Part shown: positions 37,272 to 43,345 of the stretch, one piece after another
Position numbering within the stretch: the stretch's first letter is position 1
How the letters are laid out: each line of letters opens with the position of its first letter
From: Escherichia coli
GTDB lineage: Bacteria; Pseudomonadota; Gammaproteobacteria; Enterobacterales; Enterobacteriaceae
Reading direction: 5' to 3' (one strand)
Assembly: GCF_030384885.1 (NCBI RefSeq)
Contig: NZ_CP128613.1
DNA: 64,000 nucleotides
Position numbers and translations under genes: made by a program
Notes under the pieces: model-generated
What the model saw: only the letters and a program-made list of their open reading frames with translations
Told to the model about the DNA's origin: nothing
The model's database searches: none

Positions 37272-38423
37272 ATGGCAGCTTCAACCTTTTTTATTCCTTC
37301 CGTGAATGTTATTGGTGCTGATTCATTGAATGATGCAATGAATATGATGGCAGATTATGGATTTACCCGTACCTTAATTGTCACCGACAATATGTTAACG
37401 AAATTGGGTATGGCGGGTGATGTGCAAAAAGCACTGGAAGAACGCAATATTTTTAGCGTTATTTATGATGGCACCCAACCTAACCCCACCACGGAAAACG
37501 TCGCTGCAGGTTTGAAATTACTTAAAGAAAATAATTGCGATAGCGTAATCTCCCTGGGCGGTGGTTCTCCGCACGACTGTGCAAAAGGTATTGCGCTGGT
37601 TGCAGCCAACGGCGGTGACATCCGCGATTATGAAGGCGTTGACCGCTCTGCAAAACCGCAGTTGCCGATGATCGCCATCAACACCACGGCGGGTACGGCA
37701 TCAGAAATGACCCGTTTTTGCATCATCACCGATGAAGCACGTCACATCAAAATGGCGATTGTGGATAAGCACGTCACTCCGCTGCTTTCTGTCAATGACT
37801 CCTCGCTGATGATCGGTATGCCGAAGTCACTGACCGCTGCAACGGGTATGGATGCCTTAACGCACGCTATCGAAGCGTATGTGTCTATTGCCGCCACGCC
37901 GATCACCGACGCTTGCGCACTGAAAGCGGTGACTATGATTGCTGAAAACCTGCCCTTAGCCGTTGAAGATGGCAGCAATGAGAAAGCGCGCGAAGCAATG
38001 GCTTACGCTCAGTTCCTCGCGGGTATGGCGTTCAACAATGCGTCTCTGGGTTATGTTCATGCGATGGCGCACCAGCTGGGCGGTTTCTACAACCTGCCAC
38101 ACGGTGTATGTAATGCTGTTCTGCTGCCACACGTTCAGGTGTTCAACAGCAAAGTCGCTGCTGCACGTTTGCGTGACTGCGCTGCTGCGATGGGTGTTAA
38201 CGTGACAGGTAAAAACGATGCGGAAGGTGCAGAAGCCTGCATCAATGCCATCCGTGAACTGGCGAAGAAAGTGAATATCCCGGCAGGCTTGCGTGACCTG
38301 AACGTGAAAGAAGAAGATTTCGCGGTACTGGCGACCAATGCCCTGAAAGATGCCTGCGGCTTTACTAACCCGATTCAGGCAACTCACGAAGAAATTGTGG
38401 CGATTTATCGCGCGGCGATGTAA
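37272..38423 (+). CDS. yiaY: Iron-containing (group III) alcohol dehydrogenase
   Basis: 383 aa; Fe-ADH motifs (GGGSPHD, histidine-rich metal site). Confidence 0.9.
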
Positions 38424-38623
38424 TCATCATTCCCATAATGGCTGGCTAATTGTCAGCCATTTTTTCAACTCTCTCAAAATTTGCGATTTTTGAGAGAGTT
38501 TTAGTTATCTCTGTAATCCTTGCCCGTAAATTCGTGATAGCCGTCGTAAAGCTATCACCAGCTGGCGAAGATTTCGCCAGTCACGTCTACCCTTGTTATA
38601 CCTCACACCGCAAGGAGACGATC

Positions 38624-40162
38624 ATGACCAACAATCCCCCTTCAGCACAGATTAAGCCCGGCGAGTATGGCTTCCCCCTCAAGTTAAAAGCCCGCTACGA
38701 CAACTTTATTGGCGGCGAATGGGTAGCCCCTGCCGACGGCGAGTATTACCAGAACCTGACGCCGGTGACCGGGCAGCTACTGTGCGAAGTGGCGTCTTCG
38801 GGCAAACGAGATATCGATCTGGCGCTGGATGCTGCGCATAAAGTGAAAGATAAATGGGCGCATACTTCGGTGCAGGATCGCGCGGCGATTCTGTTTAAGA
38901 TTGCCGATCGAATGGAGCAGAACCTCGAACTTTTAGCGACGGCTGAAACCTGGGATAACGGCAAACCCATTCGCGAAACCAGTGCTGCTGATGTACCGCT
39001 GGCGATTGACCACTTCCGCTATTTCGCCTCGTGTATTCGGGCGCAGGAAGGCGGTATTAGCGAAGTGGATAGCGAAACCGTGGCTTATCACTTCCACGAA
39101 CCGTTAGGCGTGGTGGGGCAGATTATCCCGTGGAACTTCCCGCTGTTGATGGCGAGCTGGAAAATGGCTCCCGCGCTGGCGGCGGGCAACTGTGTGGTGC
39201 TGAAACCCGCACGTCTTACCCCGCTTTCTGTACTGCTGCTAATGGAAATCGTTGGTGATTTACTGCCGCCGGGCGTGGTGAACGTGGTTAACGGCGCTGG
39301 TGGGGAAATTGGCGAATATCTGGCGACCTCGAAACGCATCGCCAAAGTGGCGTTTACCGGCTCAACGGAAGTGGGCCAACAAGTTATGCAGTACGCCACG
39401 CAAAATATTATTCCGGTAACCCTGGAACTGGGCGGCAAGTCGCCAAATATCTTCTTTGCTGATGTGATGGATGAAGAAGATGCCTTTTTCGATAAAGCGC
39501 TGGAAGGCTTTGCACTGTTTGCTTTTAACCAGGGCGAAGTTTGCACCTGTCCAAGTCGTGCCTTAGTGCAGGAGTCTATCTACGAACGCTTTATGGAACG
39601 CGCCATCCGCCGTGTCGAAAGCATTCGTAGCGGTAACCCGCTCGACAGCGTGACGCAAATGGGGGCGCAGGTTTCTCACGGGCAATTGGAAACCATCCTC
39701 AACTACATTGATATTGGTAAAAAAGAGGGCGCAGACGTGCTCACCGGCGGGCGGCGCAAGCTGCTGGAAGGCGAACTGAAAGACGGCTACTACCTCGAAC
39801 CGACGATTCTGTTTGGTCAGAACAATATGCGCGTTTTCCAGGAAGAAATTTTTGGCCCGGTGCTGGCGGTAACCACCTTCAAAACGATGGACGAGGCGCT
39901 GGAGCTGGCGAACGACACGCAATATGGTCTGGGCGCAGGTGTCTGGAGTCGTAACGGCAATCTGGCCTATAAGATGGGGCGCGGCATTCAGGCCGGACGC
40001 GTATGGACCAACTGTTATCATGCCTACCCGGCACACGCAGCATTTGGCGGCTATAAGCAGTCGGGCATCGGGCGCGAAACCCATAAGATGATGCTGGAGC
40101 ATTATCAGCAAACCAAGTGCTTGCTGGTGAGCTACTCGGATAAACCATTGGGGCTGTTCTGA
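38624..40162 (+). CDS. aldB: Aldehyde dehydrogenase B
   Basis: Start at [17 protein letters not shown] (512 aa, ATG at 38624); ALDH catalytic Cys/Glu motifs ([16 protein letters not shown]). Confidence 0.95.
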
Positions 40163-40189
40163 TGTAAGAAGCTGGTCGCATCGGGAGGT

Positions 40190-40300
40190 CATTGCCTGAT
40201 GCGACGCTTTCGCGTCTTATCATGCCTGGGGGGGCATATATTTACGCCTGACTCCTGACCGTAGGCCGGATAAGGCGTTCACGCCGCATCCGGCATAAAC
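40190..40300. repeat. REP/BIME elements downstream of aldB
   Basis: gcctgatgcgacgctttcgcgtcttatcatgcc and taggccggataaggcgttcacgccgcatccggca. Confidence 0.6.
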
Positions 40301-40411
40301 AAAGCGCACGTTGTTACAATTTGCGTTTTAAACCTACATGCGCAATAACCCAGACTACGCCAACAGAAGTGCGTTTCTGGCGGAAGCTGCCCGGCGTGTA
40401 TTGCCGGGCGT

Positions 40412-40747
40412 TTAATCTCGCGTTTCGATGGTGAGCGGGCGGACCAGGCTGTACAGCCACAGACCAAAACAAGCGATGGTGCCAATCACCACGGTGAGGA
40501 ACACACTGACTGACAGGCCTGCAAGCAATCCCGCAGGCAGGGCCAGCAGGCCGTGGATCACGGTGTCGTTCCATCTCACCAGATCGTAGCCAAACATGCC
40601 TAAAACGCCGCAAACCAGACCGTAAATCACCATTGGTGTTCCGAGGCCAATCAGCAATAAACGGTAGATAATTGAAGGTTTAATACGCTTTATCTGTACT
40701 GTGGATGTTTTACTGGGGTTATTCATTAGTTTGGTCAATAGTTCCAT
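40412..40747 (-). CDS. Hypothetical small inner-membrane protein (two predicted TM helices); start uncertain
   Basis: ORF with hydrophobic stretches IIYRLLLIGLGTPMVIYGLVCGVLGMF and LLALPAGLLAGLSVSVFLTVVIGTIACFGLWLY; no strong Shine-Dalgarno at any candidate start (40795 GTG, 40747 ATG, 40726 ATG). Confidence 0.4.
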   Translation of the reverse strand: MELLTKLMNNPSKTSTVQIKRIKPSIIYRLLLIGLGTPMVIYGLVCGVLGMFGYDLVRWNDTVIHGLLALPAGLLAGLSVSVFLTVVIGTIACFGLWLYSLVRPLTIETRD

Positions 40748-40908
40748 TATTTCAATATGATAAACCTCGACCTGTTGAAAAGCCAGGTAGCACACTTCAG
40801 AAAGTATATAAAAAACAATATGTCGTTATATAAATAAGGAAATTGCACTGCATCATGGCATTTCATAATATGCGTTAATTGTTCTTTTTTATATTCTCTG
40901 AGGGAAAT

Positions 40909-41232
40909 ATGTTCCTGGACTATTTTGCACTGGGAGTGCTTATTTTTGTATTTCTGGTGATATTCTATGGGATTATTATTTTACATGATATTCCCTACCT
41001 GATTGCTAAAAAACGTAATCATCCTCATGCCGACGCCATTCATGTTGCTGGTTGGGTGAGTCTTTTTACGCTGCATGTTATCTGGCCATTTTTGTGGATT
41101 TGGGCCACGCTTTACCGCCCGGAGCGGGGATGGGGAATGCAAAACTATGACTCCTCCGTTGTGCAACTACAACAGCGTATTGCCGGGCTGGAGAAACAGC
41201 TCGCCGACATCAAATCCTCTTCTGCCGAGTAA
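40909..41232 (+). CDS. yiaW: DUF3302-family inner membrane protein
   Basis: 107 aa from ATG at 40909, with GAGGGA Shine-Dalgarno; close paralogue of yibI. Confidence 0.8.
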
Positions 41233-41237
41233 TACTT

Positions 41238-42374
41238 ATGGATTTACTGATTATTTTGACCTATGTGGCTTTCGCATGGGCAATGTTTAAGATCTTCAAA
41301 ATTCCTGTAAATAAATGGACCATTCCCACCGCGGCCCTGGGTGGCATATTTATTGTCAGCGGTCTAATTCTGTTAATGAACTATAACCATCCGTATACCT
41401 TTAAAGCGCAAAAAGCGGTTATTTCTATTCCTGTTGTCCCGCAGGTGACAGGCGTGGTGATCGAAGTGACGGACAAGAAAAATACGCTGATTAAAAAAGG
41501 TGAGGTGCTATTTCGACTGGACCCGACGCGTTATCAGGCGCGGGTGGATCGGCTGATGGCGGATATCGTTACCGCAGAACATAAACAGCGGGCGTTGGGC
41601 GCAGAGTTAGATGAGATGGCGGCGAATACTCAGCAGGCAAAGGCCACGCGGGATAAATTCGCTAAAGAGTACCAGCGTTACGCACGCGGCAGCCAGGCGA
41701 AAGTAAACCCGTTTTCAGAACGCGATATTGATGTGGCGCGGCAAAATTATCTGGCGCAGGAAGCCTCCGTAAAGTCATCGGCGGCGGAACAAAAACAGAT
41801 CCAGAGCCAGCTGGATAGCCTGGTGTTGGGTGAACATTCTCAAATCGCCAGCCTGAAAGCGCAGCTCGCGGAAGCAAAATATAACCTTGAGCAGACGATA
41901 GTGCGTGCGCCGAGCGATGGTTATGTGACCCAAGTGCTGATTCGTCCGGGTACCTATGCCGCATCGCTGCCGCTACGTCCTGTGATGGTGTTTATACCCG
42001 ATCAGAAACGACAAATTGTGGCGCAGTTCCGTCAGAACTCCTTGCTGCGACTGGCTCCCGGCGATGATGCGGAAGTGGTGTTTAATGCTCTGCCAGGTAA
42101 GGTATTCAGCGGTAAGCTGGCAGCCATTAGTCCAGCTGTTCCCGGCGGAGCTTATCAGTCGACCGGCACCTTACAGACGTTAAACACAGCACCGGGTTCA
42201 GATGGCGTTATAGCGACCATTGAACTGGATGAGCACACTGAGTTGAGCGCTTTACCAGACGGTATTTACGCCCAGGTGGCGGTTTACTCTGATCATTTCA
42301 GCCATGTCTCGGTGATGCGCAAAGTGCTGTTACGCATGACCAGTTGGGTGCATTACCTTTATCTCGATCATTAA
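41238..42374 (+). CDS. yiaV: HlyD-family membrane fusion protein
   Basis: 378 aa; paralogue of yibH, same domain layout. Confidence 0.85.
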
Positions 42375-43345
42375 TCTTCGCTTTCCGCCGCTTGTTCAGG
42401 CCGCAGTTGCTGCGACTGAGCAAGCTGGTGGCGAATTTCACGCAGCATTTCATCCAGCACATACTGGACCCGCCAGGGCTGGTATTCCCGTTTACGGAAG
42501 ATAGCCACCAGATCCAGCCACCATTCATACGGTTGCTGAAAGCAGGGCACCAGCGTGCCGTCTTGCAGGTCGCTCTGCACACTTTTGTCTGGCGCAAACA
42601 CAATCCCCAGGTGATTTCGTGCCAGCTCCAGCGCCGATTGCGTGTTGTCGCAAACGTAATTTCCCTTCACGCGATAATCCCGCACCTCTTTACTCCCGGC
42701 GACGTTGAAGCGCCAGATATTCGCGTCGTCGATCATCATCGAGTCGATCAAAATACAGGAGTGATGTTCGAGTTCGTCAGGACGGCTAATGGGATGTTTC
42801 TCAAGATAGCGCTGACTGGCATAAGCGGTTACGGCATATTGCGTAATAAAACTGGCAACCAGCGATTCATCTTTTGGTGGAGCATAGCTGATTAAAACAT
42901 CACAATCATCGGGAAATTCGACACCTTCATAAAAGGCATTACGCTCAAGATTGCAGGTTTTTAGCGATAAGGTGATATCACCGATATCTTTAATTTTATC
43001 GATAACATGTTTGGATAAATAGGTAATTATGCCGGTTGGGGCGTAGATGGTGACCCGACCACGCTTCTCATGCTTATAATCTGCAATAAAATTATTAAGT
43101 TGCTCGTTTCTGTCCAGCATGTCGTTGATGTACGGTAACAGCGCGGTACCAAAAGGTGTGAGCATCAGCTGCCGGGTGGTTCGGTCAAAGACTTTTAAAC
43201 CTACTTTTGATTCAAAATCAGCAAGATATTTGCTGACGTTGGCCTGTGCGAATCCAAGTACAGTCGCGGCATGGCTGATATTTTCACTGGCAGCGATTAC
43301 CGAGATAATTTTTAACTCCCGGTACTTAAGTTGTAATTTTGTCAT
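42371..43345 (-). CDS. yiaU: LysR-family transcriptional regulator
   Basis: 324 aa; N-terminal HTH ([28 protein letters not shown]) and LysR substrate-binding domain. Confidence 0.85.

Follow-up and report, generated by a model that had tools for sequence, protein, structure and literature searches.

A genuine protein-coding gene very probably lies on the minus strand at 40412-40726 of the window, i.e. of the whole 64,000-nt stretch of Escherichia coli DNA that was analysed. With the same confidence it is regarded as a stand-alone gene under purifying selection, with a product of two-helix membrane architecture, and as a rare native intact allele. The initial annotation had described a minus-strand ORF with two hydrophobic helices at this place and had left it open if this was a small membrane protein or a chance ORF. 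The ORF was found again with at most 127 aa, and its hydropathy shows two segments. From the interval given for it, 40412-40878, the ORF itself could be retained, whereas the end at 40878 falls in the intergenic or promoter region past the ORF. A check of conservation and codon substitutions had been proposed, and its outcome favours a genuine gene over a chance ORF.

Already known is the RefSeq entry as a hypothetical protein. The selection acting on the gene, the definition of its family, the predicted fold and the remnant in K-12 are added here. The current understanding is not overturned; the gene is dispensable in almost all E. coli.

Reading frame, start codon and selection

Three in-frame starts are available in the longest ORF:

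40412-40795, minus strand: longest ORF, GTG start at 40795, 127 aa
40747 and 40726, minus strand: in-frame ATG starts of the ORF, giving 111 aa and 104 aa, respectively
40412-40726, minus strand: CDS of the 104-aa small membrane protein (MNNPSK...TIETRD), TAA stop at 40412-40414
40727-40795, minus strand: in-frame upstream extension (GTG 40795, ATG 40747), probably an untranslated leader, open in Escherichia only

The ATG equivalent to 40726 is the start in all orthologues outside Escherichia, and upstream of it these orthologues contain stop codons or unrelated sequence. Because the orthologues outside Escherichia start at this codon, 40412-40726 (104 aa) was taken as the CDS. The forms with 111 aa and 127 aa were rejected, since the extension lacks conservation beyond Escherichia and neither upstream start is preceded by a Shine-Dalgarno sequence. 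The 104-aa product is identical to RefSeq WP_001064340.1, named 'hypothetical protein' by PGAP in E. coli strain 2013C-4282, whose locus is 100% identical (bases 40300-40920). This entry is found in 2013C-4282 and in about 26 further complete genomes. For strain RMDEC465 a different start was chosen by PGAP (TTG, 108 aa). As the curated MG1655 record annotates nothing in the interval and RefSeq gives a hypothetical protein, the former remark that the ORF is not recognisable as a named gene remains valid.

Pairing with the anti-Shine-Dalgarno sequence amounted to -3.3, -2.7 and +2.7 kcal/mol for the three candidate starts, compared with -6.1 kcal/mol for yiaW and -8.5 kcal/mol for aldB. This weak pairing at all three starts agrees with the earlier remark that none of them has a good ribosome-binding site. 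Several orthologues outside Escherichia have a good Shine-Dalgarno sequence at the right spacing (-6 to -8 kcal/mol); the motifs are GAGGA in Kluyvera, AAGGAG in Citrobacter sedlakii and AGGAG in Franconibacter. The leader without Shine-Dalgarno sequence is common to three Escherichia species.

With a word-indexed protein search, 36 proteins were obtained at E<=0.01. They comprise near-identical proteins of E. coli, 90%-identical ones of a cryptic Escherichia clade, three full-length relatives (103-105 aa, 51-63% identity) and shorter partial matches. A scan of species-representative genomes detected copies in E. whittamii, Escherichia sp. E1V33, C. amalonaticus, C. sedlakii, Superficieibacter electus, three Kluyvera, two Franconibacter and two Enterobacter species, and Pseudomonas paraversuta. 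The frame was open in 19 of 19 orthologue loci, with products of 103-117 aa and a protein identity of 38-93%. Among the six frames, only that of the small gene is free of stops in all orthologues; the remaining five contain stops in nearly every orthologue.

The dN/dS ratios (Nei-Gojobori, NG86) of unsaturated orthologue pairs were between 0.05 and 0.25. For the window against E. whittamii or Escherichia sp. E1V33 values of 0.11-0.15 were determined, and 16-19 synonymous versus 7-8 non-synonymous changes were counted in these two comparisons (p<=3e-5). In example pairs, substitutions at codon positions 1:2:3 were distributed as 6:1:19, 9:2:26 and 8:2:35. The binomial p for the synonymous excess was about 3e-5 to 3e-10. 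Similar values of GC3 were measured for the small gene (0.60) and for aldB (0.63).

Protein family and predicted structure

A profile of five orthologues was compared with 1.84 billion representative proteins. It matched 324 cluster representatives at E<=1e-3 and 113 at E<=1e-10 (clusters at 50% identity). Nearly all of them have a length of 90-130 aa and are matched end to end (profile positions about 8 to 102). The window ORF was recognised by the family HMM with E=8.6e-36, as the sole match among the six-frame ORFs of the window with >=40 residues. In 57 aligned sequences the most conserved columns are G59 (57), G88 (56), L89 (55), G27 (54), G46 (54), G40 (50), W90 (50), N53 (49) and S93 (49). 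All motifs of the family, G27, G40, FG46, WN53, G59 and GLWxYS (88-93), are present in the window protein.

Neither the window protein nor the 57 family members gave a consistent match in Pfam-A, NCBIfam, PADLOC or PHROGs, and no PDB chain matched the family by sequence. Every family member is named 'hypothetical protein' in its source. No relative of the small gene was encoded in the phage records, and two matches labelled as plasmid turned out to be mislabelled chromosome-sized records with the K-12-type remnant. The family is unnamed, with proteins of about 100-120 aa, and occurs sparsely in Enterobacteriaceae, in Pseudomonas and in many lineages known from metagenomes. It is compact and missing from Pfam, NCBIfam and PDB, and the AlphaFold model of the protein is confident.

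In the 104-aa form, Kyte-Doolittle hydropathy places two hydrophobic segments at roughly 19-46 and 57-95. The mean pLDDT of the AlphaFold2 models was 79.7 with 17 sequences and 87.2 with 57 sequences. Helices at 17-44 and 59-95 and a two-stranded hairpin at 51-56 appear in both models, and short strands at 7-10 and 100-103 are added in the deeper one. The predicted order of elements is strand, TM helix, short hairpin, TM helix, strand. The family mean of K+R is 2.8 in the N-terminal tail, 0.5 in the loop and 1.7 at the start of the C-terminal tail. From the model and the positive-inside rule, we infer a helical hairpin in the inner membrane with both termini in the cytoplasm. In this arrangement the strands 7-10 and 100-103 would be placed to pair on the cytoplasmic side, and the short conserved hairpin (FGyD-x-V-x-WN-x3-HG) would face the periplasm. 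The helices are lined by the nearly invariant G27, G40, G46, G59 and G88 and by a mid-helix proline in each. According to the model, these glycines and prolines would fit tight helix packing, and hence self-association or docking onto a larger membrane protein. Fold searches with the model returned generic helical hairpins only.

A possible, still tentative mode of action is that of a membrane-embedded accessory or oligomeric (self-associating) module, which would act via helix-helix contacts and would involve no enzymatic chemistry. Expression would probably be weak and conditional, from the AT-rich divergent region (31% GC), which is bound by H-NS in K-12. AcrZ and MgtS are enterobacterial small inner-membrane proteins with less than 50 aa and one TM helix, which bind larger membrane proteins. 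Like these, the small gene is a stand-alone gene for a small hydrophobic protein with glycine-rich helix faces and no enzymatic domain. Unlike these, its product is longer (104 aa), with two TM helices and structured ends, and its predicted periplasmic hairpin is conserved. Furthermore, AcrZ and MgtS have known partners and no sequence relationship to the small gene.

State of the gene in Escherichia coli

The state of the locus was compared in complete E. coli genomes:

27 of 5,426 complete genomes: gene intact, 171-nt segment 40442-40612 present
3,218 of 5,426 complete genomes: K-12-type junction, exactly this 171-nt segment (57 codons) lost in frame
490 of 5,426 complete genomes: GH127 gene joined at its 3' end to hicB, about 30 nt of the small gene left
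One strain, AVS0973: aldB adjoining the GH127 gene, no small gene and no hicAB

The segment concerned in the window is:

40442-40612, minus strand: segment deleted in K-12, encoding the last part of TM1, the predicted periplasmic hairpin and the bulk of TM2

Both edges of the deletion carry imperfect direct repeats of the form ACCAGnCnGTA, namely GACCAGGCTGTACA and AACCAGACCGTAAA. The K-12 junction, AACCAGGCCGTAAA, combines parts of both repeats, as a deletion between short repeats would be expected to produce. The K-12-type ORF of 47 aa, WP_001066080.1, shares with the window gene the locus, the start, the first 38 and the last 9 residues. It corresponds to MG1655 3,754,611-3,754,754 and is unannotated in the curated MG1655 record. 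Without the 57 codons, a single hydrophobic helix is left. Judged by its sequence, WP_001066080.1 is best read as a pseudogene remnant, and some remnant alleles carry further lesions, namely start loss and 3' frameshifts. The K-12 pseudogenes ysaC and ysaD were considered for this locus and rejected; they are located between yiaS and yiaT according to a strain description.

Since every outgroup possesses the full-length form, this form is ancestral. In the parts not lost from K-12, the window allele shows 96.5-100% identity to K-12, while its 5' part is only 87% identical to E. whittamii. Due to this higher identity to K-12, the intact copy is regarded as a surviving native allele of E. coli and not as an import. 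Along the locus 37300-43345 the identity to K-12 was 93.2% for yiaY, 94.5% for aldB, 96.0% for yiaW, 97.6% for yiaV and 98.7% for yiaU. This gradient suggests a divergent haplotype around aldB, which may represent an old polymorphism or a recombination boundary.

The main rival to a gene with a maintained function is that of an Escherichia gene in decay. According to this explanation, the gene was functional in the enterobacterial ancestor, is now weakly or not translated in E. coli, and the window strain simply has no disabling lesion so far. Several observations point in this direction: the intact gene is kept in so few complete genomes, E. coli has lost it through two or more different deletions, remnant alleles have lost the start or the frame, and all Escherichia alleles are without the Shine-Dalgarno sequence found in other genera. 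Outside E. coli, an independent internal deletion has joined mid TM1 to mid TM2 in the protein P0068 (68 aa) from another enterobacterial lineage, and the relative P0167 (49 aa), also from another enterobacterial lineage, is truncated. Its tendency to decay is therefore not confined to E. coli. Since 99.5% of the complete E. coli genomes are without the intact gene, it must contribute little to the species, or only under certain conditions, and the copy in the window could be in the course of being lost. However, the low dN/dS of 0.11-0.15 was obtained against alleles of E. whittamii and E1V33 that are equally devoid of a Shine-Dalgarno sequence. Thus, selection on the protein continued after the loss of this signal. 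Moreover, over the deleted segment the 27 intact copies from E. coli share 98.9-100% identity, with no disruption reported for any of them. Taken on the whole, decay is considered rather unlikely, and a gene still under purifying selection is preferred.

In E. coli the locus downstream of aldB occurs in at least five structural states. These differ in the presence of hicAB, in the small gene being intact, partly deleted or gone, and in the adjoining block, which is either yiaWV or GH127-MFS-AraC. In AVS0973 an inserted Fic-family gene separates yiaY from aldB. Within one species, at least two separate events deleted the small gene, next to a toxin-antitoxin remnant. The seemingly blank aldB-yiaW spacer of K-12 is a graveyard of the small gene and hicAB, with the gene intact in few strains and in neighbouring genera.

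Neighbouring elements and possible roles

The elements around the small gene in the window are as follows:

40162, plus strand: end of aldB
40194-40226 and 40265-40294, plus strand: two REP elements between aldB and the hicB remnant (pattern matches, zero expected by chance)
40335-40415, plus strand: hicB remnant, last 26 codons and stop, translated as YMRNNPDYANRSAFLAEAARRVLPGV before the stop, compared with YVRNNPDYANRSAFLAEAARRVLPGV at the HicB C-terminus
40757-40764, minus strand: conserved octamer TTTATCAT, candidate -10 element, about 30 nt upstream of the ATG 40726
40804-40848, no strand assigned: conserved 45-nt block GTATATAAAAAACAATATGTCGTTATATAAATAAGGAAATTGCAC, near-invariant from Escherichia to Citrobacter, contains the -10 of the yiaWV promoter
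40909, plus strand: start of yiaW
41238, plus strand: start of yiaV

These coordinates confirm that the ORF is situated between the REP elements after aldB and the start of yiaW, as had been noted before. With yiaW on the plus strand from 40909, the small ORF is divergent from it. The hicB remnant differs from intact HicB by one residue. The two stop codons, at 40413-40415 for hicB and at 40412-40414 for the small gene, have 2 nt in common. A terminator-like hairpin at 40388-40410 on the plus strand lies within this remnant. A complete pair of hicA and hicB is not present at the window locus, only the 3' remnant of hicB. Intact hicAB was found at the same site in E. coli EC6868 and RMDEC465, Escherichia sp. 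E1V33 and Enterobacter sp. kpr-6. Hence, the REP elements occupy the place of the deleted hicAB.

The small gene is convergent with aldB in Escherichia and relatives, sometimes with hicAB between them, as in E1V33, kpr-6 and RMDEC465. Upstream of it lies yiaW in divergent orientation or, alternatively, a co-oriented gene for a GH127 glycosidase, which characterises it as a stand-alone unit and not as part of a fixed operon. In the neighbourhoods of six distant homologues and at the Pseudomonas locus no conserved partner was detected. The neighbours of the distant homologues include LysR regulators, an SBP_bac_3 protein, a Zn-ADH, glyoxalases, a LemA/TPM cluster and many unknowns. As no neighbour is conserved across the family, we infer that the protein works alone or with a partner encoded elsewhere.

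The octamer TTTATCAT, or its variant TTTATTAT, was kept in 8 of 8 aligned Escherichia and Citrobacter-like loci, and the flanking bases diverge. On the basis of this conservation the octamer may be the -10 element of the small gene. No canonical sigma-70 promoter was detected on the minus strand by a consensus promoter scan, and the reading as -10 element is therefore tentative. For the yiaW/aldB spacer of K-12, the sigma-70 promoter CAGACA-17-TATAAA of yiaWV and binding of H-NS were reported (Shimada et al. 2014, PMC3946193). The 45-nt block stands out from a promoter region that otherwise diverges. It is likely a regulator-binding region, and the adjacent LysR-type YiaU is perhaps a candidate for its binding.

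A dedicated partner of YiaW and YiaV (DUF3302 protein and HlyD-like membrane fusion protein), co-regulated via the shared divergent promoter region, would be another explanation. Such a role would fit the orientation of the gene, which points away from yiaW in Escherichia and in several Citrobacter-like genomes, and the strongly conserved 45-nt block between both genes. Nevertheless, yiaWV does not accompany the gene in Kluyvera, Superficieibacter, Franconibacter, C. sedlakii, Enterobacter spp. and Pseudomonas, and neither yiaW nor yiaV is located within the 4-kb flanks in 9 of 15 loci of the species-representative scan. Conversely, yiaWV persists in thousands of E. coli genomes that lost the gene. 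A partnership with YiaWV is therefore judged very unlikely.

About equally improbable is a toxin of the type I or holin kind, i.e. a small membrane protein which would damage the membrane when expressed. Type I toxins and holins (TisB, Hok, Fst; phage holins) are likewise small membrane proteins, and the size, the hydrophobicity and the poor translation signals of the small gene recall them. Type I toxins typically have less than 60 aa and one TM helix. The small gene differs from these by its 104 aa, two TM helices and structured termini, and it has no significant family-wide match to toxins or holins. Isolated weak matches of single family members to holin or Fst models were obtained, but in just 1-2 of 57 members with E~1e-3, which is noise. 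The gene adjoins the toxin-antitoxin module hicAB in some genomes; however, hicAB forms a complete unit by itself and is missing at most loci with the small gene. No phage or plasmid copies of the family and no lysis-cassette context were detected, the neighbours being unrelated housekeeping or accessory genes, and neither an antisense RNA nor an antitoxin partner is evident. A further point on the side of a toxin is a reported role of the spacer in tolerance. According to a 2025 article (PMC12648084), which cites Hu & Coates (2005), the tolerance of E. coli to antimicrobials may be supported by the spacer between aldB and yiaW and not by aldB itself. If true, the toxin would explain the weak translation signals, the repeated loss and possibly the link to drug tolerance.

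In K-12 MG1655 this spacer (3,754,429-3,754,972) contains REP elements, the hicB remnant, the 47-aa remnant ORF and the conserved promoter block. Phenotypes attributed to it can now be examined through a concrete candidate. A search of the literature for the aldB-yiaW interval found no Tn-seq or ribosome-profiling data. With regard to the tolerance statement in the 2025 article, the gene could found an undescribed, widespread two-TM family with a role in tolerance to envelope or stationary-phase stress, with the K-12 remnant or the promoter region shared with yiaWV behind the tolerance. Such a connection is a long shot.

A chance ORF, conserved due to a regulatory region, an RNA or a gene on the opposite strand, would agree with the lack of a Shine-Dalgarno sequence and a consensus promoter, of matches in any family library and of an annotation by the MG1655 curators, but it is extremely improbable in view of the frame kept at such divergence, the excess of third-position changes, the low dN/dS, the stops in the other five frames, the 324 family representatives of matching length and the Rfam scan of the ORF, which gave noise only and no family above threshold. 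Sub-threshold Rfam matches to naRNA4, which is derived from REP, were located outside the ORF at 40156-40226 and 40264-40330. The two REP elements in the spacer are of different types, and the second type recurs in the window at 14712, 23847, 58514 and 63255.
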